Sequence record: OR842557
DNA length: 64,000 nucleotides
Source: Escherichia phage 04086
Strand: one strand, 5' to 3'
The stretch's first letter is position 1, and each line of letters starts with the position of its first letter. Under the pieces are notes generated by a model. That model saw only the letters and a program-made list of their open reading frames with translations. It searched no databases and was not told the origin of the DNA. Of this stretch, positions 3,281 through 49,887 are shown piece by piece. The position numbers and the translations under genes are program-made.

Positions 3281-5705
3281 ATGCAAGTACAAAAAAGTAG
3301 TGGTGTATCCCAAGATTTTGACGCACAAAAAATTATTAAAGTTCTGACTTGGGGCTGTGAAGGAACCCAAATCGACCCCTATGAATTATACGAAGAAATC
3401 AAATCTCATCTTCGTGATGGTATGACTACCAAAGATATCCAAAATCTGACTGTTAAGGTAGCAGCCAACCTTATTTCAGTTGAAGAGCCTGATTACCAAT
3501 ATGTTGCTGCAAAGCAATTGATGTTTGCACTGCGTAAAGAAGTTTATGGCCAGTTCGAACCACGTAGCTTTATCGACCATATTTCCTATTGTGTTAACGA
3601 AGGTAAATATGACCCTGAATTGCTGTCTCGATATTCTGCAGAAGAAATTACTTTCTTAGAATCTCATATCAAGCATGAACGTGACTTTGAATTGACCTAT
3701 GCAGGTGCGATGCAGCTGAAAGAGAAATATCTGGTTAAAGATAAGACTACGGGTAAAATCTACGAAACCCCTCAGTTCGCTATCATGTGTATTGGCATGG
3801 CCTTACACCAAGAAGAGCCAGGTAATCGTTTGGCACATATTATTCGTTTTTATGATGCTGTAAGTACCCGTCAGGTTTCATTACCAACTCCTATTATGGC
3901 TGGAGCACGTACACCTACCCGTCAATTTAGTTCTTGTGTGGTTATTGAAGCAGGCGACTCACTGAAATCTATTAACAAAACTGCTAACTCAATAATTGAA
4001 TACATTTCTAAACGTGCAGGTATTGGTATCAACGTTGGTATGATTCGTGCTGAAGGTTCTCGTATTGGCATGGGTGAAGTCAAACATACTGGCGTTATTC
4101 CATTCTGGAAACATTTCCAGACTGCTGTTAAATCATGTTCACAAGGTGGAATCCGTGGCGGCGCTGCTACTGCTTATTATCCTATTTGGCATTTGGAAGT
4201 TGAAAATCTGCTCGTTCTGAAAAACAACAAAGGCGTAGATGAGAACCGTATTCGTCATATGGACTACGGAATCCAGATGAACGACCTTATGATGGAACGT
4301 TTCGGTAAAAATGATTACATCACGCTGTTTAGTCCTCATGAAATGGGTGGTGAGCTTTATTATTCTTATTTCGAAGACCAAGACCGTTTCCGTGAATTGT
4401 ATGAAGCAGCTGAAAAAGACCCTAGTATTCGTAAGAAACGTATTAAAGCACGTGACCTCTTCGAATTGTTCATGACCGAACGTTCAGGCACTGCACGAAT
4501 TTATCCTCAGTTCGTTGATAACACTAACAACTTCACACCATTTATTCGTGAAAAAGCTCCTATTCGACAGAGCAACTTGTGTTGTGAAATTGCTATCCCG
4601 ACTACTGACGTGAATAGTCCGGACGCCGAAATTGGTTTGTGTACGTTGTCTGCATTTGTGCTGGATAACTTCGATTGGCAGGACCAAGACAAAATCAACG
4701 AGCTCGCTGAAGTCCAGGTACGTGCACTTGATAACCTATTGGACTACCAAGATTATCCTGTTCCTGAAGCTCTGAANTGTGAATAGTCCGGACGCTGAAA
4801 TCGGATTGTGTACGTTGTCTGCATTTGTGCTGGATAACTTCGATTGGCAGGACCAAGACAAAATCAACGAGCTCGCTGAAGTCCAGGTACGTGCACTTGA
4901 TAACCTATTGGACTACCAAGATTATCCTGTTCCTGAAGCTCTGAAGGCCAAGAAACGTCGTAATCTGGGTGTTGGTGTTACGAACTATGCAGCTTGGTTA
5001 GCAAGCAACTTTGCTTCTTATGAAGACGCAAACGATTTAACTCATGAACTGTTTGAGAGATTACAATATGGGCTTATCCGAGCATCAATCAAGTTGGCCG
5101 AAGAAAAAGGACCTTGCGAGTATTATTCAGACACTAAATGGTCTCGAGGCGAATTACCTATCGACTGGTACAATAAAAAGATTGACCAAATCGCAGCCCC
5201 TAACTATGTTTGTGACTGGACGTCGTTGCGGGAAGACTTGGCTAAACATGGCATCCGTAATAGCACATTATCAGCACTTATGCCGTGTGAATCAAGCAGC
5301 CAGGTTTCCAACTCTACAAACGGCATCGAACCTCCACGTGGTCCGGTAAGTATTAAAGAATCTAAAGAAGGTAACTTCCGTCAGGTAGTTCCTAATGTAG
5401 AACATAACCAAGGGCTCTACGATTACGCTTGGACCCTCGCTAAGAAAGGTAATAAACCTTATCTTACCCAAGTGGCAATAGCGTTGAAATGGGTGTGTCA
5501 ATCGGCATCAGCTAATACATATTATGACCCGCAGATTTTCCCAAAAGGAAAAGTTCCGATGTCAGTAATGCTTGATGACCTGCTGTATTTCTGGTACTAC
5601 GGTGGTAAGAACCTTTACTATCATAACACCCGTGATGGCTCTGGTACTGATGACTACGAAATCGAAACTCCTAAAGCCGACGATTGTGCAGCTTGTAAGC
5701 TTTAA
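3281..5705 (+). CDS. nrdA: Ribonucleotide reductase large subunit; frame broken by duplication at n 4777
   Basis: Class I RNR alpha features (ATP-cone N-terminus, NxCxE active-site region NLCCEIAIPT, C-terminal CAACKL tail); after removing the duplicate ~750 aa as in T4 NrdA. Confidence 0.9.
4609..4945. repeat. Direct duplication (~168 bp x2, n at 4777) inside nrdA
   Basis: Second copy repeats SPDAEIGLCTLSAFVLDNFDWQDQDKINELAEVQVRALDNLLDYQDYPVPEAL with a few synonymous differences. Confidence 0.9.
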
Positions 5706-18196: not shown

Positions 18197-18409
18197 ATGG
18201 TTAAGAAATTGATTCAGAAATTATTAGGTACGGAAATGGTCGAAGTGACTTATCGTGTAACTGATTTATCTCCTGTGCATCCGCAAGATGAACCATATAC
18301 TAAAACAATTAAAATGCTGAAATCTGATGGCGGATTATCTATTGAAGACCGTCTACCTGGTTATGGTCATTGGGCTGATGTCGAAATTATAAGTGTCAAA
18401 GATATTTAA
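18197..18409 (+). CDS. Hypothetical 70-aa protein, paralog A
   Basis: MVKKLIQKLLGTEMVEVTYRVTDLSP...; RBS aagcGAGGataat. Confidence 0.5.
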   Translation: MVKKLIQKLLGTEMVEVTYRVTDLSPVHPQDEPYTKTIKMLKSDGGLSIEDRLPGYGHWADVEIISVKDI

Positions 18410-18418: not shown

Positions 18419-18631
18419 ATGATTAAGAAATTATTTAAAAAGCTGTTTGGCTTGGAACTGGTTGAAGTGACTTATCGTGTTATTGATTTATCACCGCCAT
18501 ATGCTTGCGATGAAGATGCTATTAAAACTGTTGTTATGCGAAAAACATATCGCGGGCAGTCAATTAAAGAAAGATTGCCAGACCATGGCATGTGGTATGC
18601 AACCAAGATTATCGGTGTCAAAGATGTCTGA
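18419..18631 (+). CDS. Hypothetical 70-aa protein, paralog B
   Basis: MIKKLFKKLFGLELVEVTYRVIDLSP...; same length and clearly homologous to 18197..18409. Confidence 0.5.
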   Translation: MIKKLFKKLFGLELVEVTYRVIDLSPPYACDEDAIKTVVMRKTYRGQSIKERLPDHGMWYATKIIGVKDV

Positions 18632-19082
18632 GTTAGAAATAAGAAGCAATTTTCCATGGCCATCATGTGCATTAAGTAACTTTGCTAAATGGCCTTTCGT
18701 TATGGATGGTATCCAATTTGGTGGGCTCGAAGGATTCCTCCAAGGATGTAAGGTGAGAAATCATGAACAACAAAAACGTATATTTGGGATGTCCGGTCTG
18801 GCAGCACAAAAAGCTGGACGAACTTATGCTAGGGCTCAGGACCGTGGCACGTTGTTCTGGCTTGGAACTCCCATTTCAAGATACTCTACAGCATGGAAAG
18901 AGTTGTACGAAAATGCTTATTTTGAAGCAGCGATCCAAAACCCAGGATTCCGCGACGCATTACAAGCTACAAAGGGCAAAGTTTTAAAGCATTCGATGGC
19001 GAGCCACCTTACAGAATGTGATACAATACTAACTGAAAAAGAGTTTATCGACATCCTAAACAAATTGAGAGATTTATTATGA
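18624..19082 (+). CDS. NADAR (YbiA/DUF1768)-like protein
   Basis: ATG 18624 overlaps previous stop (ATGTCTGA); LSNFAKWPFVMDG....LEGFLQGCK and FRDALQAT resemble the YbiA/NADAR motifs FSNFAAWP..VDG..W.S.EHYFQA.KF and LRALLLAT (recollection, not searched). Confidence 0.5.
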   Translation: MSELEIRSNFPWPSCALSNFAKWPFVMDGIQFGGLEGFLQGCKVRNHEQQKRIFGMSGLAAQKAGRTYARAQDRGTLFWLGTPISRYSTAWKELYENAYFEAAIQNPGFRDALQATKGKVLKHSMASHLTECDTILTEKEFIDILNKLRDLL

Positions 19083-19718: not shown

Positions 19719-19997
19719 ATGTTTGTAGTTCATACAATTTCAGACTATGGTCCTACCACTACAATGGATTATGGTCATGTAAACCAGTTTATTCGTCATG
19801 TGAATCATGATTACTCATTTGATGTAAATCCGGCTAAAGACCATCCTGTTTGGCGCGAATGCGTCGAACAGGGATTCATTTATGTCCACTTTATGTCCAA
19901 GTTCAAATCTGATGGGCGAATGAGATTTGTGTTCTCTTATCATAAGCGATTAGACTTGCTTTTGGCTGATGTGGCTTATAATAGAATCCATGACTAA
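19719..19997 (+). CDS. Hypothetical protein (92 aa)
   Basis: ATG at 19719 just after HAD-like stop. Confidence 0.45.
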   Translation: MFVVHTISDYGPTTTMDYGHVNQFIRHVNHDYSFDVNPAKDHPVWRECVEQGFIYVHFMSKFKSDGRMRFVFSYHKRLDLLLADVAYNRIHD

Positions 19998-20007
19998 TGA
20001 GGTGATT

Positions 20008-21531
20008 ATGATTTTAGATATTTTAAACGAAATTGCTGCTATTGATTCTACTAAAGCTAAAGAAGCCATTATTGCTCGTGAAAAGGACAATGAGCTTCTG
20101 AAACGTGTTTATCGTATGGCTTATACCCGTCGTCTGAACTACGGTATTAAAAAGTGGCCAGAACCTGGATTTACATCTCAATCCTTTGGTATGATTACTC
20201 TTGAAGACCTTCTTGATTTCGCTGAATTCACATTAGCCACACGTAAGATTACGGGTAATGCGGCTATTGAAGAATTGGCTCAAATCATTGCTGATGCTAA
20301 GGCCCCGGATGCCGAGGTATTACGTCGTGTAATGATGCGCGACCTTGAATGTGGTGCATCGATTTCTATTGCTAACAAGGTTTGGAAAGGTTTAATCCCT
20401 GAACAACCGCAGATGTTGGCGAGTTCTTATGATGAAGCTTTGATTAAGAAAAATATTAAATGGCCAGCGTTTGCTCAATTAAAAGCTGATGGTGCTCGTT
20501 GTTTTGCCGAAGTTCGTAACGATGGTGTGACATTCCTTACTCGTGGTGGTAATGAATATCAAGGGCTTAATCTTTTGGCTGCTGAATTAATGGCCATGAC
20601 CGAAGAAGCTCGACAACGCCATCCTAATGGCGTTATGATTGATGGCGAATTAGTTTACCATACTCCTAAGGTAGAACCTAAAGCATCTAATGATTTGTTT
20701 AGTATGTTTGACGAGGAACTTCCTGAATTAAGTAAGGCTAAGGAATTCCAAACTGTCGCCGATCGTTCTACGTCAAATGGCTTGGCTAACAAAGCTCTTC
20801 AAGGAACTATCACTCCATCCGAAGCAGCCGGTATGGTATTACAGGCATGGGATTATGTCCCGCTGGATGTCGTGTATTCTGAAGGCAAAATTAAAGGCGA
20901 TAAGTACGATGTACGCTTTACGGCCTTAGAACTTATGGTTGCTCATAATGTCGTATTGCATGGCAAAACGCGTGTTGAAGCTATCGAAAACCAGTGGGTT
21001 AATAATCTTGAAGAAGCTAAAGTCGTTTATAAAAAATATGTCGACCAAGGTCTGGAAGGTATTATCCTTAAGAACATGGACTCCTACTGGGAAAACCGCC
21101 GTTCTAAGAATCTTATCAAGTTCAAAGAAGTAATCGATATCGCTTTAGAAGTGGTAGGTTATTATGAACACTCGAAGGACCCTAACAAACTTGGTGGCGT
21201 CGAGTTAGTATCACATTGTCGTCGAATTACAAGTGACTGTGGCTCAGGCTTTAAAGATACTACCCATAAGAAAGATAAATCAGGTAAAAAGGTATTGATT
21301 CCACTGGAAGACCGTCCTGATTTAGACCGTGAACTTCTTATGAAACAAGCTCGTGAAGGTAAGTTGATTGGACGTATTGCTGACTGTGAATGTAATGGTT
21401 GGGTTCATTCTAAAGGACGTACCGATACTGTAGGTATTTTCCTTCCAATCATTAAAGGTTGGCGTTTCGATAAAACAGAAGCTGATACATTTGAAGATGT
21501 ATTTGGTGATTGGTCTCAAACTGGACTATAA
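20008..21531 (+). CDS. 30: ATP-dependent DNA ligase
   Basis: 507 aa from MILDILNEIAAIDSTKAK; collinear with T4 gp30 incl. adenylation motif AQLKADGARCFAEVR and GLEGIILKN, KFKEVIDI. Confidence 0.9.
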   Translation: MILDILNEIAAIDSTKAKEAIIAREKDNELLKRVYRMAYTRRLNYGIKKWPEPGFTSQSFGMITLEDLLDFAEFTLATRKITGNAAIEELAQIIADAKAPDAEVLRRVMMRDLECGASISIANKVWKGLIPEQPQMLASSYDEALIKKNIKWPAFAQLKADGARCFAEVRNDGVTFLTRGGNEYQGLNLLAAELMAMTEEARQRHPNGVMIDGELVYHTPKVEPKASNDLFSMFDEELPELSKAKEFQTVADRSTSNGLANKALQGTITPSEAAGMVLQAWDYVPLDVVYSEGKIKGDKYDVRFTALELMVAHNVVLHGKTRVEAIENQWVNNLEEAKVVYKKYVDQGLEGIILKNMDSYWENRRSKNLIKFKEVIDIALEVVGYYEHSKDPNKLGGVELVSHCRRITSDCGSGFKDTTHKKDKSGKKVLIPLEDRPDLDRELLMKQAREGKLIGRIADCECNGWVHSKGRTDTVGIFLPIIKGWRFDKTEADTFEDVFGDWSQTGL

Positions 21532-21532
21532 T

Positions 21533-21715
21533 ATGAAAGCTTATTTAGAAACCGTGGTTATTGGATATAAAGAAGGTGGGGATGTCTCCACTGCAGTGTC
21601 CCAAATTGTCCTTGAATTTGAAAATGAAATCGCATTCGCTGATTTTAAAGATAATTTCGACCGCTATGAAAAGGGTCCTAAATTTGAAGTATACCGTACG
21701 TTGCTACCACTTTAA
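21533..21715 (+). CDS. Hypothetical small protein (60 aa)
   Basis: ATG overlapping ligase stop; followed by terminator. Confidence 0.4.
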   Translation: MKAYLETVVIGYKEGGDVSTAVSQIVLEFENEIAFADFKDNFDRYEKGPKFEVYRTLLPL

Positions 21716-21734
21716 GGCCTTCGGGCCTTTTCTG
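21715..21734 (+). terminator. Rho-independent terminator (AGGCC-UUCG-GGCCU + UUUCUGG)
   Basis: GC stem, UUCG loop, U-rich tail after ligase operon. Confidence 0.6.
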
Positions 21735-21765
21735 GCATAAATAAGGTTATTAAAGAGGAATTATT

Positions 21766-23661
21766 ATGTCCGAACAATTGAATGAGGTATTTGACGGCGC
21801 TATAGATTTATCAGCTGTCAATTTAAACCCTAAACTTAAAGTACCACAGATTTGGAATATAAAGGCTGAAGGTAATGAGAACCTTGTTGCACGCATGGTT
21901 TCATATACTTCTGAAGGTGATACAATCCGCCAAGTTAAACCGGGTGACAAATACGTTCATATTATTTTAATGAGCCTATCATCTAAAGGGGCCCCGGCAG
22001 AACTCAAAGGTGGTTTAGGTAGTAACCCCATTTCCGCTATTCGTTCTATATTTGATACGGTTTATGAACAAGTTAAAAAGCTCCGTATGGATGCCGTTAT
22101 GTTCCGTTTTCCTACTAAGAAAATGAAAGGTCAGGAAAAAGCTGTACAACGAGTTCTAGCCAAATTAATAGCTACTAGAGCAGGTGGGCAATTCAAGGTC
22201 CTTGATGCCTTGTATCAATATACAGGCAAACATTCATATGTTTTTATCTATCGTAAAAATAAAAATATAGAATCAATAAACGGTATTCCTAATATTAATC
22301 CGGAATTGTATACTAAAGTCGAATCTGAAGTCGGTGATGTGTATGTTTCAAAGAAAACAGGCGAAGATGTTACCAAATTAGAAGCTATAGCTAAGTCTAT
22401 AGACGAAATAGAAAAATCACGTTCTGATAAAATGGTTATAACCAAGACTAAGGTTTCTAAACGGGCCGCTATAAATGCGTTATATTCTACCGCCGAGCCT
22501 ACAGGATTGAGTAAATTTTCGGCAGAGCACAAAAAAGCTTATGCAGATTATTCTGCTACTAGTTCCGTTCATTCTTCTGAAGATTCTAAAGAAAGCCAAA
22601 TAGCTTTAGCCAGTAATAAAATATTAAAAGACGCCTCTAAAGAAATGGCAGAATATTTGGATTATATTTTTAACGGTGTTAATCCATCATTTGAAGTAGA
22701 CGAGCGCAAACTTAAACTAATTGCTGATATAAAGTTTGCTTTAGAGGCATCAGATTCTTTAGATAAATCTAATAGTGTCATAGAGGCTTTAAAATCAGGT
22801 AAATCTCATGTAGACATTCTTAGACTAGTCGCTGCGGCCCTTTTAGATGATTCAGTTAAAGGTACTTGGGCTAGAGAATCTAAAATCAAGGAAGTAATAA
22901 AATCCTTAGTAGCAGTTTATACAAAATCTATCCAACCGTTGTTTAAGATATCTGATAATCCTAATTTATCCAAACCTCAAGAAGAGGCAGTCAAAAAGTA
23001 TACTCGTGGCGGCTACAACCATATAAACAACTTTTTGCTAGGTAAAACAGATACCACCGATGAAATGATAAAAATGATTGGTGAGTTGGATTCTACATTT
23101 GAAAATGGTACAAAACTTCCTAAAGGAACCATAGTGTATCGTTCTCAGATAATGCCTACCGAAATGGCTTTGAATTCTATAAAACATAAGGTGATGTATC
23201 TTCCTATTTTTGCATCAACTTCATTGGCTCCTAATATTTTCGGTGAAATGGGTCATGCTCAATCCAACTTAGACCCTGAAGCTCTTTCTAGCGATATAGA
23301 TAGTAATCTTGAAGACACCATTAAAAGTGCGACCGGAAGTGCTAGAGATACCATTAAGCTAGGGCTAATTATTAAAGGTGCTGATAAAATTAAGGTTATT
23401 GTGCCCGGTGACTTGGCTAATTGGTCTACAGAAACCGAAGTAATTCTTCCTCGTGGGGTTATGCTTAAGATTAATAAAGTATACGGTGCTTCCAAGGGAC
23501 CTATGGGTTCAATTGGTAAATATGTTTTAGTGGAATGTGAAGTTGTAGCTACAGAGCAAATCACAGAGGAAAATTCATATAGCACCGGATTCTCGTTTGG
23601 AAATTATGATAGAATTATGTATGAAGATTCTATGGAAAAATTAGCAAATTTATTTAAATAG
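21766..23661 (+). CDS. Alt-like ADP-ribosyltransferase paralog 1 (631 aa)
   Basis: Conserved Alt N-terminus (NLNPKLKVPQIW...MDAVMFRFPTKKMKGQ) and C-terminal ART motifs (YTRGGYNHINNFLLG; VYRSQ; FASTSL; ETEVILPRG). Confidence 0.8.
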   Translation: MSEQLNEVFDGAIDLSAVNLNPKLKVPQIWNIKAEGNENLVARMVSYTSEGDTIRQVKPGDKYVHIILMSLSSKGAPAELKGGLGSNPISAIRSIFDTVYEQVKKLRMDAVMFRFPTKKMKGQEKAVQRVLAKLIATRAGGQFKVLDALYQYTGKHSYVFIYRKNKNIESINGIPNINPELYTKVESEVGDVYVSKKTGEDVTKLEAIAKSIDEIEKSRSDKMVITKTKVSKRAAINALYSTAEPTGLSKFSAEHKKAYADYSATSSVHSSEDSKESQIALASNKILKDASKEMAEYLDYIFNGVNPSFEVDERKLKLIADIKFALEASDSLDKSNSVIEALKSGKSHVDILRLVAAALLDDSVKGTWARESKIKEVIKSLVAVYTKSIQPLFKISDNPNLSKPQEEAVKKYTRGGYNHINNFLLGKTDTTDEMIKMIGELDSTFENGTKLPKGTIVYRSQIMPTEMALNSIKHKVMYLPIFASTSLAPNIFGEMGHAQSNLDPEALSSDIDSNLEDTIKSATGSARDTIKLGLIIKGADKIKVIVPGDLANWSTETEVILPRGVMLKINKVYGASKGPMGSIGKYVLVECEVVATEQITEENSYSTGFSFGNYDRIMYEDSMEKLANLFK

Positions 23662-23669
23662 GATAGATT

Positions 23670-25751
23670 ATGACCCAATTAAATGAAGTGTTCGAGTCCG
23701 AAGGTACACTGCCTGTTGTGAACTTGAACCCAAAACTTAAAGTACCTCAGATTTGGAAGATTGGAGACGCGGAGTCTCAGTTAGTAGCACGTATGGTATC
23801 CTACGCTTCTGAAGGTGATGCTATTAAACAAGTTAAAATGGGTGATAAATATGCCCACGTTATCCTTATGAGCCTTTCAGCTAAAGGTTCGCCTGCCGAA
23901 CTTAAAGGCGGCTTAGGCCCTACTCCTGTAGATGCGATTAATACTATTTTTGATGTAGTTTATGACCAAGTTAAAAAGCTTCGTATGGATGCCGTGATGT
24001 TCCGTTTTCCTACCAAGAAAATGAAAGGTCAAGGCCCTATCGTTCAACGTATTATCCAACGTTTGGTAGCACAGAAAACCGGTGGACGTTTTAAAGTGGT
24101 TCCGGCTATGTACCAATTTACCGGTAAACATACTTACATCCTGGTAGTCCGTAAACAAGCTGATATCGAAGATATCAAAGGTATGCCTGGAATTAATGCT
24201 GAATTGTATACTAAGGTAGATTCTGATGTCGGTGAAGTTTATATTTCCAAAAAAGAAGGTGTGCAGGTTACTAAAGAAACTGCTATTGCTGGCAGTATTG
24301 CTAAGGTTGAAGAACGTCGCACTGATAAAATGGTTATAACCAAGACTAAGATTTCTAGGCGCGCCATTGCAGCAAGCCAATCATTGGAATCTTATCGTAA
24401 TGAAAGTGAATTGTTTAAGAAATATGAAGCTACTGCAGCGGATTTTAATAAACCGGCAACAGTTCCATTAATCCCTGAGGCTCAGGAAATGGTTACTAAT
24501 AACAATTCTCCTGCGGCTAAAAATAAGGTTGCTAATATAGTGGCTGAAGGCACTGCTGAAGAATTGCATTACGATTATAAAATGTTTCCTCTTCACGGTA
24601 TAGGTGAAATCCAAGAGAAAATTAAAGAGAAAATTCTTACAGCAATAAAAAACGAACCTTTGACATCTGTTAAAGCTCTAGAAAAATATGCCTCTGCTAT
24701 TAATACCGTTTTCGAAGAATACAAAGGTGAATGGCTGGCTATCCATAACAGAACTCGTAAAGGCCAACCTGATGACCTTTGGAACGAATTGACAGAGGCC
24801 AAGTGGAAAGCAGCCAAGACTAAGTTCATTAAAAAACGTGTATATAGTTTTGCTGGTGTGGGTGGCGGTATTATGGTTGATATTACTATTGCTCGTGAGG
24901 GCTCTAAATATACCCCATCACAAAAGCGCGGAATCAGAGAATATTGTGGTTCAGGATATACAGACATAAATAATCTTCTTTTAGGACGTTATAATCCTCA
25001 GAACTATGAGGTTATGAGCGAAAAAGATATCGAATCTGCAGTTAATAATTTGGATTCTGCTTTTGAAAACGGCGACCGTATACCAGAAGGCATCACAGTT
25101 TATCGCGCACAGAGTATGACTGCTCCTATATACGAAGCACTAGTTAAAAATAAAGTGTTCTATTTCAGAAATTTTGTATCTACTTCTTTAACTCCTATCA
25201 TTTTCGGACGTTTTGGTGTTACCCACGCAGGTATTGGTCTTTTAGAACCTGAAGTTCGCAATGAATTGACAGTCGATAAAAATGAAGAAGGAATAACTAT
25301 TAACCCTAATGAAATAAGAGCGTATAAAGAAAACCCTGATTACGTTAAAGTTCAAATAGGATGGGCAATTGATGGAGCCCATAAAGTTAATGTCGTATAT
25401 CCAGGAAATCTCGGAATAGCAACTGAAGCCGAAGTTATTCTGCCGCGTGGATTAATGGTCAAAGTTAATAAAATAACAGATGCTTCTAATAATGATGGAA
25501 CAACATCTAGTAATACAAAACTCATCCAAGCTGAAGTTATGACAACAGATGAGCTTCAAGAATCTGTGGTATATGATGGTGACGTACTAATGGAAACCGG
25601 CGAGCTGGTCGTGTATCAAGATGATTTCGATACTTCCGAAAGCCCTGTATCTTTTGATTCATTTGTTAAATCTACACGGTTTGATGTACTGCCTCTTTTG
25701 GCTTCATGCATAGACCTCTATGACATCCCAGAAAAATTCATCCAAGGGTAA
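23670..25751 (+). CDS. alt: ADP-ribosyltransferase Alt (closest to T4 Alt; 693 aa)
   Basis: Collinear with recalled T4 Alt incl. YTPSQKRGIREYCGSGYTDINNLLLGRYNP, VYRAQ, FVSTSL, EAEVILPRGLMVKVNKITDASNNDGT, C-terminal ASCIDL..P.KF.QG. Confidence 0.85.
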   Translation: MTQLNEVFESEGTLPVVNLNPKLKVPQIWKIGDAESQLVARMVSYASEGDAIKQVKMGDKYAHVILMSLSAKGSPAELKGGLGPTPVDAINTIFDVVYDQVKKLRMDAVMFRFPTKKMKGQGPIVQRIIQRLVAQKTGGRFKVVPAMYQFTGKHTYILVVRKQADIEDIKGMPGINAELYTKVDSDVGEVYISKKEGVQVTKETAIAGSIAKVEERRTDKMVITKTKISRRAIAASQSLESYRNESELFKKYEATAADFNKPATVPLIPEAQEMVTNNNSPAAKNKVANIVAEGTAEELHYDYKMFPLHGIGEIQEKIKEKILTAIKNEPLTSVKALEKYASAINTVFEEYKGEWLAIHNRTRKGQPDDLWNELTEAKWKAAKTKFIKKRVYSFAGVGGGIMVDITIAREGSKYTPSQKRGIREYCGSGYTDINNLLLGRYNPQNYEVMSEKDIESAVNNLDSAFENGDRIPEGITVYRAQSMTAPIYEALVKNKVFYFRNFVSTSLTPIIFGRFGVTHAGIGLLEPEVRNELTVDKNEEGITINPNEIRAYKENPDYVKVQIGWAIDGAHKVNVVYPGNLGIATEAEVILPRGLMVKVNKITDASNNDGTTSSNTKLIQAEVMTTDELQESVVYDGDVLMETGELVVYQDDFDTSESPVSFDSFVKSTRFDVLPLLASCIDLYDIPEKFIQG

Positions 25752-25754
25752 ATA

Positions 25755-28317
25755 ATGGAAAATTTAAACGAGGTTTTTGATAGTGATTCCGCTAAAAACT
25801 ATCCAGTAACAAATCTTAAACCGGGTTCCGGTATTCCACAGATTTTCTCTATCCAAGCACCAGGTAACGATAACCTGGTTGCTCGCATGGTATCTTATGC
25901 GTCTGAAGGCGACGCTATTAAGATGGTTAAGGCGGGCGATAAGTACGTCCATGTTATCTTAATGAGTTTATCTGCTAAAGGCGCTCCGGCAGAACTCAAG
26001 GGCGGTTTGGGTACCGATCCACTCGGTACACTGAACACCATTTTCGATACCATATATGAACAAATAAACAAACTTAAAATGGACGCGGTTTTATTCCGTT
26101 TCCCTACTAAGAAAATGAAAGGTAAGGGCCCTACCGTTCAGCGCGTATTAGCTCGTTTGGCTATGGCCCGTACCGGTGGTAAGTTTAAAGTTGTTGACGA
26201 CATGTTCCAATTCAGCGGAAAACATACCTACGTTCTTTTAGTACGTCGTGGTGCTAATATTGAAGATATCAAGGGTATGCCTGAAATTAATGCCGATCTT
26301 TATACTAAAGTTGAGTCTAAAGTTGNAGGTCCTACCGTTCAGCGCGTATTAGCTCGCTTGGCTATGGCTCGTACCGGTGGTAAGTTTAAAGTTGTTGACG
26401 ACATGTTCCAATTCAGCGGAAAACATACCTACGTTCTTTTAGTACGTCGTGGTGCTAATATTGAAGATATCAAGGGTATGCCTGAAATTAATGCCGATCT
26501 TTATACTAAAGTTGAGTCTAAAGTTGGCGAAGTGTATGTTTCTAAGAAAACCGGCCAGGCNTAAGGGCCCTACCGTTCAGCGCGTATTAGCTCGTTTGGC
26601 TATGGCCCGTACCGGTGGTAAGTTTAAAGTTGTTGACGACATGTTCCAATTCAGCGGAAAACATACCTACGTTCTTTTAGTACGTCGTGGTGCTAATATT
26701 GAAGATATCAAGGGTATGCCTGAAATTAATGCCGATCTTTATACTAAAGTTGAGTCTAAAGTTGGCGAAGTGTATGTTTCTAAGAAAACCGGCCAGGCCG
26801 TAAGTAAGGTCGAAGCAGTAGCGGCATCTATTGCACAAGTTGAAGAGAAACGTACCGATAAGGCTGTCATTACCCGTACTAAGATTTCCCGTCGTATGGC
26901 AGCAGCCGCGCAGTATTCTACTGCTGAGCCTGAAACTTTGTCCCCTAAAGAATTGCAGGTTTATAACGAGTTTGAAGCTTCTGTACCGGTTCACACGGCT
27001 GAAGGCCCTGAGAATGAAGGTATTGAACAGATTAGTCAGAACTTTAAAAAAGGTGCTATTACTAAAATGCGCCAGGCTTCTCAGTTTAAATCTAAGAGCG
27101 AGGACCTTGCCAACTTTAGATACACTATTGCCCTCACGCACGCTTTAATGACTGATAGTAAATTTAAACTAAATTATGCTAATAGAGATAAACAAGGGTT
27201 TGAAATTTACTCTAATAATATGGCATTTTTTAATACAGAAGTCGATAGACTTTTAAGTGGTCTTTCGCAAATCAATACAACCAATAGTCTGGATATTATT
27301 AAGAAAATTGTTAATAACTTGAGTGCTCGTTTTAAGGGTTCCCCTTCAGAAAAGGCCTCTCGAATTGCTTTCGCTATGGAAGCCGTTTATAAACTGGTTA
27401 ACGATTCTATTAGTGATGCATATGCTTATTCAGGCGAGCTCATTAAACCTAAGGACCTAACCAAAGACGAAAGCAATGCTATTATTGAATATTGCGCAGC
27501 TGAATATGCTCCTATGAACTTATTCCTTTTAGGTAAACCTGAATCCGAAAACAATACAACGGCTATTAAATTGATTAAGGATTTAGACTCAGCATTTACT
27601 AAGGGTATTAAACTTCCTAAGGGTACTATTTTGTATCGTGGTCAGGATTTGCCATACAAAATTCTGCGCCATAATATCGATAACAAAACATTTTACTTTA
27701 AGAACTTTGTGTCAGCCTCATTAAAGCCTAACATCTTTGGTGAATTTGGTAAAAATTATATGGCCCTCGACAACCAAGCCGTTTTTGTTGGCGGCGAAGG
27801 TTCTTTATCCTCCGCTGATGAGTTGTTTAAATTGGCTAGCGGTAGTTCATCTGATGTGGGTGAAGTCGATGACGAAGAGGTAGAATGGGAAGAAGACGAG
27901 TTCGGTAATCCAATTGCGCCCGAAGGTCCTGCGGATAGAATTGCTGAAATTGGTATGGTTATTCGAGGTGCTGAAGCAGTTAAAGTTATCGCTCCTGGTG
28001 ACCTTACAGAATATGCCGAAGAAGCAGAAATTATCCTTCCGCGTGGGTTATTGTTGAAGGTTGATAAAGTAGCGGCTTTTGCTATGAATGATAGAGTATC
28101 TCACAAATACCTTATGGAAGCTACCGTAACACCTCCTTCAGAGCTCAGTGAATCTGTTTACGATGGTGACCATTTGATGGAAACTGGTGAAGTTCGCCTG
28201 ATGGACGGCTTTAAACAGTTCTTGGTTAGTGAATCCATTTCTGAAAGTAACGAGGCTATGGAAATCCTTGCTGCATCTTTGGATATCTCTTCTTTATCAA
28301 ATAAATTCAAAATGTAG
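25755..28317 (+). CDS. Alt-like ADP-ribosyltransferase paralog 3; frame broken by two inserted duplicate copies (n at 26326 and 26561)
   Basis: Alt-like N-terminus plus C-terminal motifs YRGQ, FVSASL, EEAEIILPRG and an acidic insert (VDDEEVEWEEDEF); ~700 aa after removing duplicates. Confidence 0.75.
26118..26795. repeat. Three direct copies of a ~233-bp alt-3 segment separated by n (26326, 26561)
   Basis: Repeated GPTVQRVLARLAMARTGGKFKVVDDMFQFSGKHTYVLLVRRGANIEDIKGMPEINADLYTKVESKV. Confidence 0.9.
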
Positions 28318-28346
28318 TTTACATTACCACAAGGATGTGGTACTAT
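28318..28346 (+). promoter_or_regulatory. T4-type early promoter (GTAGTTTACA, 17 nt, TACTAT) followed by catgaggag RBS module
   Basis: Near-consensus early promoter overlapping end of alt-3; stem ccacaagga/tgtgg in spacer. Confidence 0.65.
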
Positions 28347-28374
28347 TACCTTACACAAACATGAGGAGAACATT

Positions 28375-28665
28375 ATGAAATCTACATTCCGTTTTAATGG
28401 TCAAGAACTGGTAGTTGAAAACGTTATCCCTGCTTCTGAAGAGTTTGACAGTGCAGTGGGTAATGAATTACGTCGAGTTTTCGGTGAAGACAAACAGTTT
28501 GATATCCGACCTGTTGAGAATTTTTCTTATCCAGAACAAACCGAAAACATTTTTAACGGTGTAGTGACAGGACAACTCGAATCCGAAGCTCCTATTTCGG
28601 TTACGGTGTTTGTTAAAAAGCAACCACTAATGACCACAGCAGGTTTCATTTCGTTCCGTAAATAA
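28375..28665 (+). CDS. Hypothetical protein (96 aa)
   Basis: ORF with GAGGAG RBS; bracketed by early promoter and terminator. Confidence 0.5.
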   Translation: MKSTFRFNGQELVVENVIPASEEFDSAVGNELRRVFGEDKQFDIRPVENFSYPEQTENIFNGVVTGQLESEAPISVTVFVKKQPLMTTAGFISFRK

Positions 28666-28674
28666 ACCCCTAAA

Positions 28675-28699
28675 GGAGAGCATATGCTCTCCTTTTTTG
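28675..28699. terminator. Palindromic hairpin GGAGAGCAUAUGCUCUCC + UUUUUUG (terminator between convergent genes)
   Basis: Perfect 9-bp palindrome and T6 tract between 28375..28665 (+) and gene 54 (-). Confidence 0.7.
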
Positions 28700-29629
28700 T
28701 TATAACAACCTCGATATTCCACTATTAACCAATCCTGTTAATCCACTAGAAGCTCCTGAAAGTCGGCTTAATTTAGCTACTGAAGAACTCAGGGAATTGC
28801 TCTCACTTATACCCGCCACGCCTTTAAGGACTTTATCTTCCAACCATTCATAAGCAGCTTGTTTGCCAACTGCACCAGTCTGTACACTTCTATAAGCAAA
28901 TGTAACATCAAATGAAGCAATTTGGTTATCACCGTCGTAAGATAATTCCGGGGAAGATACGCTCATTGGAACGCAACCATTAAGCATTACTACCGTATGT
29001 GGTAATCCATTACGGGAATGAAGGTTGACTTGAATGTCAGCTTCAACATCCTCCGGTAATGCTCTTAATTGTGTAATAGGGTCTTGAACACTATTGACCC
29101 AATCATTAAAAGCACGGTAGTTAGCAGCTTCAGAATCCATACGGAAGCTTAATACTAATGGAGAATATTCTCTTCCGGTAATTTTGATGTTAGGTGAGTT
29201 GTGGTTCAAATCCATTTCATAGTTCAAAGTATTATCTGGGATTTTAACGGCGTGGACTAAAAGACCTGCCGTAGGATAGGCCATATTGAAAAAATCCATC
29301 AGATATGTACCTACTTCAAACTCTCCTAGTAAGCTCTGCACAACCCTGGATGACATAGCTCCAATCAAATATTTACTTATGCCTGACTTACGAATCAACT
29401 TCTGAGTGCCCGCTGTCACTAATGTCGTAACACCTTGGGTCAACTCTCCTTGTGTAATACCAAACAAATCGCTATTCAATGGGATATTGTTAAATAAAGC
29501 TCCACCGAACTGGTCGAGGAGCGCTTGAGATTTAGAAGAAGGAACCGTTGCAAATACCACACTAAACAGGTTATTCCTCTGTAGGTCAATATTAATTGCC
29601 TGGTTCTGAAATTCTTGTAAAGTATACAT
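28700..29629 (-). CDS. 54: Baseplate tail tube initiator Gp54
   Basis: 309 aa; position and size as T4 gp54; synteny 54-48-29. Confidence 0.75.
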   Translation of the reverse strand: MYTLQEFQNQAINIDLQRNNLFSVVFATVPSSKSQALLDQFGGALFNNIPLNSDLFGITQGELTQGVTTLVTAGTQKLIRKSGISKYLIGAMSSRVVQSLLGEFEVGTYLMDFFNMAYPTAGLLVHAVKIPDNTLNYEMDLNHNSPNIKITGREYSPLVLSFRMDSEAANYRAFNDWVNSVQDPITQLRALPEDVEADIQVNLHSRNGLPHTVVMLNGCVPMSVSSPELSYDGDNQIASFDVTFAYRSVQTGAVGKQAAYEWLEDKVLKGVAGISESNSLSSSVAKLSRLSGASSGLTGLVNSGISRLL

Positions 29630-30725: not shown

Positions 30726-32662
30726 CTAATTAACTTTAGTAGCTTGACGCATACCAGGAGCAGGAGTAGAGGACTGTGGAGGTAAATTATAACTAGTCTT
30801 ACTCGTTTTCTTGATATTCGTTTGCTGATTTATTTGAGTTGGAGCCTGCTGACTATATTTAGCATTTTCCTTTGCTCTCATTTGCTCATCAACCTTTTTA
30901 ACCTGGGTATTTTCAGGAGATTCCGCTACAGAAGCAGGTTTAGGCTTTTCAGCTTCATTAAATTTCTCTAAAGATTTATTCATCTTATCAAGTAATTGCT
31001 GGATATTAAGGTCCTTCGGTGCTCCGCCTTTAGCCATAATAGGGTCGGCCAATTGTTTCTCGATATCAGCTTTAAATGCTTTAGCATTTTCGATATCTTT
31101 AGAATCAGGCTTCATTATATTATCAGCAGTTTGAGTCAAACGAATAATATCGGCTTGGGCTTTATCACGCTTCTTGAAATACTCTAATCGTTCTTCTTCA
31201 GGGAGGTCACGGAAGCTTGTGCCAATTCCACCTGCGCGTAATTGGTCAGCCTGTTCTTTAGTAAGATTACCGTATTTCTCTGCTTGGTTTATAAGCTCGG
31301 GTTTATCCTTATACTTCTTATTCATTTTCTCGGCTGTTTCTAAAGCCTCGGCAGAACGTCTATCGTGGTACTTGGCTACTTTAGTTTGGTCTTCATCATC
31401 TAAAGTGGCTCCAGTATTTTGTTGATACGACATTAAAGCGGAAGCCTCCACGTTTTCAGCTAACTCACCCATACCAGGTATTTTGCTTAAAATGGCAGAA
31501 ATCAACTTAGAAATACCGAGCATTAAAAGCTGGGCCATATTTTTAGTAAGATTAACCATACCACGAATAATGGCTTCAGCCAGACCTAACCAGTTCCCTT
31601 CACTAAACATGGCTTCAGCATTCTTGGCCCATGTCATTAGCCCTTCAAGTAATGGTCCCCACTCTTTAAACTTATCGTTAAATTCTTTCCATCCTGCCTC
31701 AAATTGGTCCATGAAATATTGGAAGTACACACGAATGGCATCTATACCAAATATTAAAAGGACTAAACCTGCGGCGAGTTTAGCAGCTTCAGCGGCAGCG
31801 GTAATGGTATACTTAAAAAGCATGCCTGAAATTCTATCAGCGACGCCTATAGAAGCTTTAAATCCCTTTTCAGTTATTTTAGTAAGGGCTTCTATTTTCT
31901 CGGAAAGAGAAGTCTTATCACCTTCTTTACCTTCATCTGAATTTTTAGGAGGCTCAGGCATAAATTCAGCGTCAGGTTTATTATCTTCAGGTGGAAGAAT
32001 ATCTTCAACAACAGCAGGAACTTTAGGAGTTTCGGCCTTAGGTTCTTCTGGAATAGAGTCTTCAATAACCTTTAATGAACTCCCTTCCGGTGGAATAGAA
32101 ATACCAGAAAATTTAGCCTCCAACATATTAGAAAGCTTATTAATCTTTTCGTTTAATGCATCCGAAAGAGCTTTAGATTGTTGAGTTTGTTCTGATATAG
32201 CTTCAGCTGTTAATTCTGTCCCGGCAACAACATCTTGGACGCTTTTATCTACTCGGTCTACAGAACTAATAATCTGATTAGACTTTGTCTCAACCACTTC
32301 AGAGAGCAATTCAGACGCCGCCTGGGAATCGGATAAAACATCTGATATATTTCCTAATTCGTCGTTCTGAGTTTNNNTTGTTGAGTTTGTTCTGATATAG
32401 CTTCAGCTGTTAATTCTGTCCCGGCAACAACATCTTGGACGCTTTTATCTACTCGGTCTACAGAACTAATAATCTGATTAGACTTTGTCTCAACCACTTC
32501 AGAGAGCAATTCAGACGCCGCCTGGGAATCGGATAAAACATCTGATATATTTCCTAATTCGTCGTTCTGAGTTTGGGCTAGCGCCTCAGCACGACGCTGA
32601 GGAGCCATTTCTTCAATCAGTTTATTGCGACGAAAACTATTCTGATTAGATTCGTTCTTCAT
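30726..32662 (-). CDS. 29: Baseplate hub / tail length determinator Gp29; frame broken by duplication at nnn 32375-32377
   Basis: Two ORFs (30726..32309, 32354..32662) share repeated SEVVETKSNQIISSVDRVDKSVQDVVAGTELTAEAISEQTQQ; about 576 aa once duplicate removed. Confidence 0.75.
32170..32580. repeat. Direct duplication (~205 bp x2, nnn at 32375-32377) inside gene 29
   Basis: Identical repeated segment either side of nnn. Confidence 0.9.
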
Positions 32663-43417: not shown

Positions 43418-43456
43418 TGCTATTTTCCTTATTGAGAATATAATTTTATTTATAAA

Positions 43457-43464
43457 AGTGGTTT
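43457..43464 (-). promoter_or_regulatory. Late promoter TATAAATA (minus strand) upstream of gene 24
   Basis: tatttata on + strand 40 nt upstream of gene 24 ATG. Confidence 0.55.
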
Positions 43465-43471
43465 ACACACA

Positions 43472-43500
43472 AAAAGCGTCGTGTTACTATAGACCTATCA
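43472..43500 (+). promoter_or_regulatory. T4-type early promoter (GTTTACA, 17 nt, TACTAT) followed by catgaggag RBS module
   Basis: Near-consensus motifs upstream of 43520 ORF. Confidence 0.65.
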
Positions 43501-43519
43501 AAACATGAGGAGATTAAAA

Positions 43520-43786
43520 ATGAACAAATTAAACTTTATCCGTACTACACTTTCTAACCTTGACAAAGACATCAAAGCTCTGGTAGAAAAATTCGGTACC
43601 AATCCTAACGGTAATGCAGTTAATGCATTGGTTAAGAAATACGAAGCCCTGGCTTATGAAACCGACTTCTGGTGGAACGGTGAATACTCTACCCATACCA
43701 AAGACAAATCTGGTAACTGGCTGAAAATCCAAGAAAATCGTATTGACTTCCGTGATATCATCAACCGTCGAGTTAAAGCGGAGTAA
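43520..43786 (+). CDS. Hypothetical protein (88 aa)
   Basis: ATG 43520 with GAGGAG RBS. Confidence 0.5.
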   Translation: MNKLNFIRTTLSNLDKDIKALVEKFGTNPNGNAVNALVKKYEALAYETDFWWNGEYSTHTKDKSGNWLKIQENRIDFRDIINRRVKAE

Positions 43787-43789
43787 AAT

Positions 43790-44461
43790 ATGAATTATTT
43801 AATTTACAAAATAACCAATCTCGTTAATAACAAGATTTATGTAGGAGCCCATGCCACTACAGATGTTAATGATTCTTATATGGGCTCCGGAGTTAACATA
43901 GTAAAATCCATAAAGAAATACGGTTTAGAGAATTTTAAAAAGGAAATCCTTTTCAATTTCGAAACATCTGAAGAGATGTATGCTAAGGAAGCCGAACTAG
44001 TTGACGAGGCTTTTGTCATGAGAACGGATACTTATAATGCAGCCTTAGGCGGCAAGGGTAATCCTGTTATAGTAGCTTTACAGGAACCTGGGTATCGTGA
44101 GATGTTATCCGAAAAGACCAAGGCAGGTATGACTGAGAAAGTAAAGGCCCATATTTCAAAAATGAAAAAAGGTGTAAAACAATCACCTGAGCTTATTGAA
44201 AATAAACGAATCGGTAATTTAAAATTTTACAAAGAAAACGGTTCAAGACTTAAAGGTAGAAAATTATCAGAAGAACATAAGGCCCGTATAAAGGCTAATT
44301 CCAATAAAGGCAAAAAATTTGTATTTGTTGATATAATGATTAAAGGCCGTAGATTTGATAGATACGAAAATGCAGCGAACTACTTTGGAGTAAGTGGTAA
44401 AACAATACGTAACTGGATTAAAGAAACCAGGCCACAATTTGCTGATTGTTATAAGTTATAG
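43790..44461 (+). CDS. GIY-YIG homing endonuclease-like protein (segD-like position between 24 and 23)
   Basis: N-terminal YLIYKITNLVNNKIYVGAH....YMGSG GIY-YIG module; basic C-terminal DNA-binding-like region. Confidence 0.7.
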   Translation: MNYLIYKITNLVNNKIYVGAHATTDVNDSYMGSGVNIVKSIKKYGLENFKKEILFNFETSEEMYAKEAELVDEAFVMRTDTYNAALGGKGNPVIVALQEPGYREMLSEKTKAGMTEKVKAHISKMKKGVKQSPELIENKRIGNLKFYKENGSRLKGRKLSEEHKARIKANSNKGKKFVFVDIMIKGRRFDRYENAANYFGVSGKTIRNWIKETRPQFADCYKL

Positions 44462-44471
44462 AAACAAGAAT

Positions 44472-44489
44472 GGGAGACCGAAGTCTCCC
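44472..44489. terminator. Hairpin GGGAGAC-CGAA-GUCUCCC between convergent segD-like (+) and gene 23 (-)
   Basis: 7-bp stem; flanking A/T-rich sequence but no clean U tract. Confidence 0.5.
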
Positions 44490-44520
44490 AAATAATTTTA
44501 AGAATTAATAACTTATGTTA

Positions 44521-46080
44521 TCAAATTCCTTTGACATAAACCCGACGAAAATAACCATTCAGACCAAGGCTGTTAACGATGTCAGGCATACCGCTCTGAA
44601 TACGTTTGGTAGGAGCCTGTGCAGACGGGTCAGCGAACGGGTTGATACCGATACCGTAACGAGTTTTGAAGCCCATTACCGGTTGGAAGTTCTTCGGATC
44701 GGAACCACGCAGCGGGGTCAGTGCAACGTACGGAGCATAGTAGATACCTGCGTCCATTTCGTTAGCGCCTTTATAACCGATGGTGAAGTAATCGGAACGT
44801 GCATACTGGTCGATGTAAACGCGATATTTACCACCAAGAACACCGGCAAATACTGCTTTGGTTGTGTCAACGTTGAAACCTTGACCCAGACCTTGAGCTG
44901 CATAACTTACAGAAGTATCAACTGCAGCCAGTACGTTAACTACGTTACGGGAAGCGATGATGAAGTTACCAGCACCACGACCGGTCTGACGAGCGATTTC
45001 GGCTGCTTCTTTATCAATCTGGAACAGAAGGGCTTTAAAGCTCTCACCGGCCCAACGAGCACCACGGATATCAATCGGGTCCTGGAAGTCAAACACACCA
45101 GCTTTAGCGCCAACGGTGTTGGTCATACCAGATTTACCAACCTGTGCAGAGTAGTTAATCCAATCGATAACTTCACGGTTGATTTCGAGCATAATTTCGG
45201 TAGCAAGGATACCGGACAGTTCAGCATCTGCATCCATACCGTGTACTGCACGAAGGTCCTGTGCCAGTTCGATAGAGTAGCTTGCTTTCAGCTGACGGGA
45301 TTTAGCTTCGATAACTTGTTTGTCGATGCGGAAGCCCATTTCGTTCCACGGGTTATCCTGGGAACCGTTAAAACCTTCCTGAAGTTCGGCGATAGAAGTA
45401 GCCATACCTTCAGCCAATTCAGCCAACTTACCAGCTTCAATCAAAGCGGTAACAGCAGCATCCAGTTTAGCGGCATCGGTAGCAGCAGAATCAACGGTTA
45501 CAGCTTCAACAGCCTGGAAGTGTGCAGCACCGGTAGCTTCGAAGAAGTGGGAATAAATTTTACCAACTTCCAGAACTTTGCTTGCAGCCAGTGCTTCGAA
45601 AGATTTAGCAGCACCCTGACCAGAGAACATAGCGTCCGGAGAATACATCGGATGGAAAGCTTCTTTAGCGCCAGCAGCGATAGGGTCTTTACCATAAACT
45701 GCGCGCAGGGCAAATACCTGGCCGGTAGGGTTATTCAGAGGCTGAACACCACAAATATCAAAAGCAATCAGATGAGGAATAGCACGACGAACCATACCCA
45801 TTACTGCCGGCCCAATCTGAGTTACAGCACCAGAAGTCTGGCCGGCTGCGATATTGGTAGCATCATAACCGTGGTCACCACCAATTTCAGCTTCGGTCAA
45901 GAAAGAACCAAATGCTTCGGAGATTTTTTCATCACGGTATTCCGGGGCAGTCAGGATGTCTTGTTCCTGGTTTTCGAAAATTTTAGCGATGATAGCTTGT
46001 TTAGAAGCACCCACGATTTCAGGAAGGGCTTCGTTTTCCAGCAGAGCGGACCATTTTTGAACTAATGCATTCTTTTTCAT
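44521..46080 (-). CDS. 23: Major capsid protein Gp23
   Basis: 519 aa; near-collinear with T4 gp23 (..FGSFLTEAEIGGDHGY.ATNIAAGQTSGAVTQIGPAVMGMVRRAIP.LIAFDICGVQP...RYGIGINPFA). Confidence 0.95.
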   Translation of the reverse strand: MKKNALVQKWSALLENEALPEIVGASKQAIIAKIFENQEQDILTAPEYRDEKISEAFGSFLTEAEIGGDHGYDATNIAAGQTSGAVTQIGPAVMGMVRRAIPHLIAFDICGVQPLNNPTGQVFALRAVYGKDPIAAGAKEAFHPMYSPDAMFSGQGAAKSFEALAASKVLEVGKIYSHFFEATGAAHFQAVEAVTVDSAATDAAKLDAAVTALIEAGKLAELAEGMATSIAELQEGFNGSQDNPWNEMGFRIDKQVIEAKSRQLKASYSIELAQDLRAVHGMDADAELSGILATEIMLEINREVIDWINYSAQVGKSGMTNTVGAKAGVFDFQDPIDIRGARWAGESFKALLFQIDKEAAEIARQTGRGAGNFIIASRNVVNVLAAVDTSVSYAAQGLGQGFNVDTTKAVFAGVLGGKYRVYIDQYARSDYFTIGYKGANEMDAGIYYAPYVALTPLRGSDPKNFQPVMGFKTRYGIGINPFADPSAQAPTKRIQSGMPDIVNSLGLNGYFRRVYVKGI

Positions 46081-46101
46081 GTGTTGTATAACCTTATTAA
46101 A

Positions 46102-46917: not shown

Positions 46918-46944
46918 TTTGTAGTCCTGTTGTTTAGATAATAA

Positions 46945-46952
46945 TATTTATA
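46945..46952 (-). promoter_or_regulatory. Late promoter TATAAATA (minus strand) upstream of gene 22
   Basis: tatttata on + strand 28 nt upstream of gene 22 ATG. Confidence 0.55.
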
Positions 46953-49886: not shown

Positions 49887-49887
49887 C

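Follow-up and report, generated by a model that had tools for sequence, protein, structure and literature searches.

Three diverged T4 Alt-family genes in tandem at the alt locus of Escherichia phage 04086, a WG01-like Dhakavirus

The window analysed, 64,000 nucleotides (nt) of Escherichia phage 04086 (record OR842557), derives from a T4-like coliphage of the genus Dhakavirus near-identical to phage WG01 and contains, downstream of the DNA ligase gene, an array of three genes read on the plus strand, designated here alt1, alt2 and alt3 (Table 1). This array forms the alt region of a WG01-like Dhakavirus; its three products all belong to the T4 Alt family, representing types C, A and B, respectively, which diverged long ago and are each conserved. 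T4 Alt is a packaged and injected NAD+:arginine ADP-ribosyltransferase (ART) with RNA polymerase alpha among its host protein substrates. Taken as a whole, the array is probably best explained as coding for three Alt enzymes that would be co-transcribed, packaged, trimmed and injected, and would act on different substrates; we favour this explanation with appreciable reserve. The arrangement and the idea of target diversification are already known, and the genes are not new.

Family membership, catalytic residues and divergence of the three proteins

Homology with T4 Alt extended over the full length of all three proteins, including an N-terminal module of about 235 amino acids (aa; N-module), with identities of 34% for alt1, 47.5% for alt2 and 32% for alt3 in BLASTP (~650-750 columns, E 1e-98 or better). 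They matched phrog_802 ("Alt-like RNA polymerase ADP-ribosyltransferase") with E values of 1.9e-207, 2.2e-263 and 5.1e-180, respectively, and scored 51.9, 124.5 (E 4e-36) and 64.1 bits with PF03496 (ADPrib_exo_Tox), all above the curated gathering cut-off of 23.4 bits. A search of NCBIfam returned no family match, and PF26846, which the homologue search gave among its precomputed domains, was absent from the output of the local Pfam scan.

The motifs quoted in the original prediction were all found, namely VNLNPKLKVPQIW / TNLKPGSGIPQIF, MDAVMFRFPTKKMKGQ, YRSQ/FASTSL/ETEVILPRG, YRAQ/FVSTSL/EAEVILPRG and YRGQ/FVSASL/EEAEIILPRG. The catalytic sets were R459, S484-T-S486 and E556-T-E558 in alt1; R479, S504-T-S506 and E586-A-E588 in alt2; and R482, S507-A-S509 and E610-A-E612 in alt3, numbered after the collapse described below. 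Five residues, namely the Arg in Y-R-x-Q, the two serines in S-x-S and the two glutamates in E-x-E, were invariant in an alignment of the three proteins with T4 Alt and at least 90% conserved among 120 homologues, so that the R-S-E triad was intact in all three, as had been claimed. The S-A-S in place of S-T-S and the acidic insert VDDEEVEWEEDEF noted earlier in alt3 were likewise present (the insert at aa 558-570, nt 27865-27903), both serines being retained despite the S-A-S. The E-x-E glutamate is essential in T4 Alt, in which an E577A mutant was catalytically dead (PMC11404850); the T4 Alt E-x-E glutamates are E574 and E576 in RefSeq numbering, the discrepancy being probably a numbering offset.

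AlphaFold2 (AF2) models were built from the 120-sequence alignment for full-length alt1 (mean pLDDT 83.8, pTM 0.75) and for residues 236-707 of alt3 (pLDDT 76, pTM 0.77). In Foldseek, both matched Vis, C3bot, CDTa, iota Ia, VIP2 and Certhrax with probability 1.0 and E values of 1e-7 to 1e-5. An NAD-binding fold, the absence of which the original prediction had named as grounds for abandoning its proposal, was thus present in the models of alt1 and alt3, which match solved ARTs. For alt2, the evidence consisted of the PF03496 match and 63-64% identity to T4 Alt in the ART domain. The alt1 protein comprised an N-propeptide motif, a basic N-module to about aa 235, a helical middle, the ART domain and a tail that was predicted to be disordered after residue 601. 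The 13-aa acidic insert of alt3 fell within a loop that was modelled with low confidence and connects the S-x-S and E-x-E parts. Searched by sequence against solved structures, a full-length query matched only binary-toxin A components (E ~1e-3), and the N-module gave zero matches at E <= 10. The assignment of all three as Alt-family proteins with an arginine-type R-S-E set and an ART fold is supported by these data.

The catalytic fold and the R / S-T-S / E-x-E residues are common to the window proteins and to the C3-like toxins, VIP2, iota Ia, CDTa and Vis (PF03496), but identity to the latter was 13-21%, these toxins are without the Alt N-module, and the means of delivery differs, i.e. the phage head for Alt versus secretion or a binary-toxin pore for the toxins. 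The E-x-E arrangement goes with arginine specificity. The R-S-E ART fold nevertheless serves varied acceptors, and a different one (a nucleic acid, a small molecule, or an RNA chain from NAD-capped RNA) might be used by at least one paralogue; in line with this, Vis, the top structural match, was crystallised with agmatine, T4 ModB is reported to perform RNAylation, and alt3 has the unusual S-A-S together with the acidic insert. Since E-x-E is kept in all three proteins and nothing specific points to another acceptor, such a use appears quite improbable, and modification of arginines is preferred.

The three consecutive Alt-like open reading frames (ORFs) lay on the plus strand at the positions originally predicted, but the third was not a single ORF in the sequence as given. 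Single N's at 26326 and 26561 divided alt3 into apparent ORFs of 269 and 622 aa, and a block of ~200-235 nt occurred within it in three near-identical copies (26123-26325, 26327-26560 and from 26562 onward). When the first part of alt3 was joined directly to the remainder (Table 1), a gene of 2124 nt encoding 707 aa was obtained, which had the same length as WG01 gp199 and aligned with it without gaps. The middle copy of the block differed at a few bases and thus looks like a strain variant. Throughout the window, N's were observed at 15 positions in 13 junctions, one of them a run of three (2180, 2404, 4777, 9683, 10463, 14283, 26326, 26561, 32375-32377, 34162, 39026, 52069 and 52349). At most junctions a 25-nt flank recurred ~150-400 nt away, suggesting a property of the assembly and not of the phage; the assembler seems to have left contig overlaps unresolved or strain variants in place at these junctions, each of which will disrupt any ORF that it falls in.

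With so many junctions in the window, mostly accompanied by a flank copy, and two inside alt3, the three genes themselves might be suspected of being assembly duplications of the same kind. The paralogues, however, are unlike one another at most positions, with only 63-77% nt identity in their best-conserved stretches, and the same trio occurs in independently sequenced isolates. An artefactual origin of the three copies is thereby refuted, in agreement with the original prediction, and retains practically no probability; it was rejected for the array as a whole, the artefact being confined to 26123-26561.

Overall identity among alt1, alt2 and alt3 was 41% and was unevenly distributed, amounting to 62-67% in the N-terminal ~235 aa, 12-24% in the middle (the following ~165 aa), 36-43% in the ART domain and 17-37% in the tail. 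This agrees with the shared N-module and diverged C-terminal part that had been predicted. To T4 Alt, the N-modules showed only 42-46% identity, that of the alt2 orthologue included, and the middle regions of alt1 and alt3 were unrelated in sequence (10-11%). By full-length identity alt2 is the orthologue of T4 Alt and was 97% identical to IME08 AltA, whereas alt3, with its 32% to T4 Alt, corresponds to AltB (96.5% to IME08 AltB). A third type is represented by alt1, the close relatives of which in the phage collection were seven records only, at >=99%; its nearest distinct homologue was alta of Shigella phage SP18 (63% overall, 68% in the ART domain). A fourth type, D, is that of QL01 gp199, and no type D was present in the window. 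In the ART domain, identity was 64-76% for orthologues from different genera and 32-40% for paralogues of one genome, indicating that the effector types are old; for the window proteins, the values were 68% for alt1 with SP18 alta and 64% for alt2 with T4 Alt, versus 35-38% between paralogues. The ratio of nonsynonymous to synonymous substitution rates (dN/dS) of each paralogue, relative to WG01, E33, IME08 or QL01, was 0.02-0.08, and each copy is under strong purifying selection.

The distance between S-x-S and E-x-E was 70 aa in alt1, 80 in alt2 and 101 in alt3, and the residue three positions before the first E-x-E glutamate was W, I and Y, respectively. In iota toxin and C3, the position three residues before the first catalytic-loop glutamate contributes to substrate recognition. 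The unrelated middle regions, the unequal spacings and the W/I/Y residues suggest that the three proteins may have different substrates. They might instead all do the job of T4 Alt on the same targets, the extra copies adding amount or robustness, as the common catalytic motif class and overall architecture would allow and as might be thought from T4, which manages with one intact copy. Copies serving dosage would be expected to be alike or decayed, but the paralogues differ strongly in the ART domain and middle, the types are conserved across genera, and dN/dS is low for each; redundancy of this kind therefore seems unlikely. That one copy or more has no catalytic activity and serves in the head core or structure, or is a nascent pseudogene like T4 alt.-1/alt.-2, would accord with the decay of extra copies seen in T4 and with the description of Alt as a head core component too (PMC11404850). 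This is very improbable in view of the intact catalytic residues, the strong purifying selection over the full length, the confidently predicted ART fold and the presence of unbroken ORFs in 10 or more related genomes. Distinct substrates for three active enzymes thus remain the preferred interpretation.

Upstream signals, processing motifs and proposed mode of action

Just upstream of alt1, a terminator-like hairpin, GGCCTTCGGGCC, followed by a T-run, and a late-promoter-like box, CATAAATA, were observed. The hairpin was conserved in WG01, IME08, QL01 and T4, and in SP18 (locus L007, ~4460-4475) it reads GGGCTTCGGCCC, a compensatory change by which the stem is kept; a conserved terminator upstream of alt has been described (Nolan 2006, PMC1524935). 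The box corresponds to the T4 late-promoter box, TATAAATA, with one mismatch and was the sole such box for the array. At the homologous place, T4 and SP18 have TATAAATA and all Dhakavirus loci have CATAAATA, so that a hairpin plus [C/T]ATAAATA element is kept before the first alt gene, whichever type this is. The array had the location typical of the T4 gene, between genes 30 and 54 and behind a hairpin and late box, with CATAAATA in place of TATAAATA. No exact TATAAATA was found in front of alt1, alt2 or alt3, the only positionally conserved element being the one-mismatch box before alt1, which is regarded here as a putative promoter. A further sequence, TTTAAATA at 23653, was discounted as an alt2 promoter because a distance of 10 nt to the alt2 ATG would be insufficient. 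A scan for sigma-70 sites gave 11 versus 27.5 expected and was not informative; among its sites, no sigma-70-like promoter was located directly 5' of any of the three genes. The intergenic gaps were 8 nt (alt1-alt2) and 3 nt (alt2-alt3), with Shine-Dalgarno-like sequences in the end of the preceding gene.

In the whole window, exact TATAAATA occurred 18 times versus 6.4 expected, and 11 of the 18 were on the minus strand at 43447-57916. Such a cluster at 43-58 kb would be expected if late (structural) genes were grouped there.

About 40 copies of T4 Alt enter the prohead core, and Alt later leaves the head together with the DNA (PMC5694885; PMC5512222). It is cut by the prohead protease gp21 at ITE-6, removing six N-terminal residues, and at LTE-619, removing 63 C-terminal residues (PMC5694885). 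Both gp21 motifs were kept at homologous columns in alt1, alt2 and alt3. An L-N-E was present at residues 4-7 in all three (LNE-7, LNE-6 and LNE-6, respectively), and the column of LTE-619 was occupied by ITE-601 in alt1, LQE-631 in alt2 and LSE-653 in alt3, the glutamate of this C-terminal motif being at least 90% conserved among the 120 homologues. The isoelectric point (pI) was ~9.7 for the N-modules and 4.9-5.8 for the effector parts; a basic N-module joined to an acidic effector part would suit a DNA-associated internal protein.

The single hairpin and box, the 8- and 3-nt gaps, the processing motifs and the basic N-modules led us to infer a single late operon, the products of which would be packaged, trimmed and injected together. 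In the proposed scheme, alt1, alt2 and alt3 would be transcribed together late from the hairpin and CATAAATA box and translated by coupling, through the short gaps and the Shine-Dalgarno sequences in the preceding gene's end. The shared basic N-terminal part would take each protein into the prohead core, gp21 would trim each at the N-terminal L-N-E and the C-terminal [LI]-x-E as in T4 Alt, and the mature enzymes of ~65-71 kDa would stay with the DNA and be ejected alongside it. In the cell, each may mono-ADP-ribosylate arginines using NAD+, in keeping with the R / S-x-S / E-x-E class, and the variable helical middle and divergent active-site loops may give each enzyme a separate set of host substrates, alt2 probably retaining the targets of T4 Alt (RNA polymerase alpha and others). 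Both gp21 motifs, the basic N-module and the one hairpin plus box make it plausible that all three are co-packaged and injected as arginine ADP-ribosyltransferases, and one Alt homologue has been detected by mass spectrometry in virions of Morganella phage MP1 (PMC5384007).

Several points weigh against this scheme. The literature searched gave no virion proteomics, activity or target data for the trio or its orthologues, and the packaging role of residues 7-235 is putative even in T4. The mismatch of CATAAATA falls on the first base of the promoter box, and the structure models cover alt1 and alt3, with alt2 outside. Additionally, for some T4-like Acinetobacter phages Alt is labelled "split" in the BFVD structure library, with the N-terminal and ART parts apparently as separate polypeptides, which is awkward for delivery by a purely cis-acting N-module.

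In their mode of working, as distinct from their sequence, the three proteins would resemble the T4 internal proteins IPI-IPIII, which are late-made, reach the prohead core by a capsid-targeting sequence, undergo gp21 cleavage and enter the cell along with the DNA (PMC5694885), but which differ in being small and non-enzymatic with a propeptide of 10-20 aa. IPI is essential against the host restriction enzyme GmrSD (PMC5694885).

The other T4 enzymes of this kind, ModA and ModB, are ~200 aa and lack the Alt N-module. They share with the window proteins the R-S-E ART class and the phage group, but are short, early and not packaged (PMC5512222), whereas alt1-3 (631-707 aa) possess both the N-module and the propeptide motifs, have no sigma-70-like promoter directly upstream, and are thus not of the ModA/ModB type.

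Related loci and exchange of modules

That the arrangement might be undescribed, as the original prediction had left open, was not borne out, since annotations of three neighbouring alt genes already exist for roughly a dozen phages in public databases. In WG01 (NC_031928), the corresponding genes, gp201, gp200 and gp199, are annotated in RefSeq as "Alt-like RNA polymerase ADP-ribosyltransferase"; the trio is also annotated in vB_EcoM-E33 and vB_SalD_ABTNLS3, and three ART genes under the match were listed also for PSD9, C6, MX01 and fDHCT2. The trio of WG01, PSD9, E33 and ABTNLS3 has the same genes, order and flanks as that of the window, with no difference of substance. QL01 has three copies with a different middle member (gp200, gp199 and gp198), and two copies are present in IME08, JS10 (where they are named alta and altb), JS98-type phages and SP18 (Gaprivervirus). 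The tandem paralogues of these phages, i.e. AltA/AltB of JS98, JS10 and IME08, alta/altb of SP18, and those of QL01, occupy the same locus and vary in copy number and order, the latter being C-A-B in the window, A-B in IME08, A-D-B in QL01 and C-like then D-like in SP18. Paralogues of alt in 44RR and RB49 were listed as early as 2006 (Nolan et al., PMC1524935), and in a 2026 paper on a two-copy phage, divergence after duplication was proposed to expand the targets of ADP-ribosylation (PMC13600099), an idea that coincides with the hypothesis of the original prediction.

A tblastn search with the N-module found 1820 places in 1201 phage records. The sampled Tequatrovirus rows mostly had two places, read as alt plus a remnant, and the sampled Dhakavirus rows had two or three. 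In the RefSeq record of T4, alt.-1/alt.-2 is explained as what is left of an ancient duplication that covered the beginning of alt; the single alt gene attributed to T4 in the original prediction is therefore correct for intact genes but leaves out this decayed second copy. T4 and the window agree in protein architecture, the R/STS/ExE residues, the gp21 motifs, the site after gene 30 and the hairpin with late box, and differ in that T4 has one intact copy and the remnant whereas the window has three intact types once alt3 is collapsed. BFVD entries designated "split RNA polymerase ADP-ribosylase" were I3WW50 (phage ZZ1), A0A410T5F4 and A0A410T542 (phage Henu6).

Discordant relationships of the N- and C-terminal parts were observed in the related loci, no chimera being evident within the window itself. 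Such discordance is a mark of modular proteins that pair a delivery domain with an exchangeable effector, an organisation like that of polymorphic toxins, with which the comparison concerns the way of working and not family membership. The N-module of QL01 gp199 (locus L004, NC_028847, 2959-5004) was 92% identical to that of alt3, whereas its middle and ART domain were 83% and 76% identical, respectively, to those of SP18 altb (locus L007, 6385-8445), the N-modules of these two proteins sharing only 40%. Judged from these identities, QL01 gp199 is clearly chimeric, its two parts meeting near residue 235. Among the 120 homologues, 27 of 7021 pairs combined at least 85% identity in the N-module with at most 45% in the ART domain, and the ART domains formed about 20 clusters (55% single linkage). 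These patterns indicate that N-modules and effector modules recombine independently, which is the sole point going beyond existing annotation and rests mainly on the related loci. A 29-nt exact repeat, CTGATAAAATGGTTATAACCAAGACTAAG, was located where the N-module ends in alt1 (22424-22452) and alt2 (24322-24350); it was the longest identical stretch between paralogues and, lying at the module boundary, may be a crossover site. P0117, a protein of 371 aa with the N-module only, was considered as a new fusion and rejected, as it looks like a truncated A-type Alt that stops inside the middle region.

Over a 7.3-kb segment the window shared 97.4% nt identity with WG01, from which it differs in being a mosaic in nt identity and in the assembly junk inside alt3. 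Within 21400-28700, nucleotide identity to WG01 was 99.8-100% for alt1 (dS 0.005) and 93-98% for alt2 and alt3 (dS ~0.19-0.20), falling to 86% at the start of alt3 (25800-26199). This mosaic pattern points to recent recombination within the alt array.

More tentatively, and with somewhat less than an even chance of being right, the T-even alt locus may be viewed as an array of lineage-specific N-modules for head delivery combined with exchangeable ART effectors for different host targets, of which T4 kept one. Dhakavirus and Gaprivervirus would then have four or more types (A-D) between them, with one to three carried per phage, and the targets may possibly include defence or toxin-antitoxin proteins. 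The swapping of modules, as far as it can be read from the aligned loci, is the established part of this view.

T4 Alt is the textbook case of a host-reprogramming enzyme that enters the cell together with the phage DNA. Phages with two or three diverged, well-conserved Alts are a ready comparison set for finding the part of the protein that chooses the substrate, and could show whether injected ADP-ribosyltransferases counter host defences besides acting on transcription. The value of this window itself is small, its genes being essentially identical to annotated WG01 genes.

Gene order and neighbouring ORFs

The order of genes at 19.9-32 kb matched the T4 segment 30-alt-54-48-29, and the order ligase - alt.1 - three alt genes - alt.-3 - 54 - 48 - 29 was shared with WG01. 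Features of the locus are listed in Table 1.

Table 1 Features of the alt locus in the window of phage 04086
Feature	Position (nt)	Strand	Remarks
DNA ligase (gp30)	19969-21531		5' neighbour of the array
Small ORF, T4 alt.1 family	21491-21715	+	Pfam Phage_blade PF24647; context only
Terminator-like hairpin GGCCTTCGGGCC with T-run	21716-21731	+	Just 5' of the array
Late-promoter-like box CATAAATA	21736-21743	+	22 nt before the alt1 ATG
alt1, type C	21766-23661	+	631 aa; 100% to WG01 gp201
alt2, type A	23670-25751	+	693 aa; 99% to WG01 gp200
alt3, type B, whole span	25755-28317	+	707 aa once collapsed; 98.6% to WG01 gp199
alt3, first part	25755-26122	+	368 nt, up to the artefactual block
Artefactual stretch in alt3	26123-26561		Two extra block copies joined by single N's
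alt3, remainder	26562-28317	+	
Small ORF, T4 alt.-3 family	28375-28665	+	DUF5498; end of the locus before gene 54
Terminator-like hairpin	28672-28695		3' of the alt.-3-family ORF
gp54, gp48 and gp29 homologues		-	Beyond the alt.-3-family ORF

Two further observations concerned genes upstream of the ligase. At ~18624-19082, 3 kb from the alt array, an ORF of the gp30.3 family was present (PF08010, E 1e-64). YbiA-type (NADAR) domains have been connected with ADP-ribose metabolism; the match of this ORF to E. coli YbiA (PDB 2b3w) was sub-threshold and not significant (E 0.79). Two adjacent 70-aa ORFs at 18197-18409 and 18419-18631, beginning with MVKKLIQKLLG and MIKKLFKKLFG, respectively, and without a Pfam match, were clear paralogues of each other; both were present in ABTNLS3 and apparently one in E33.

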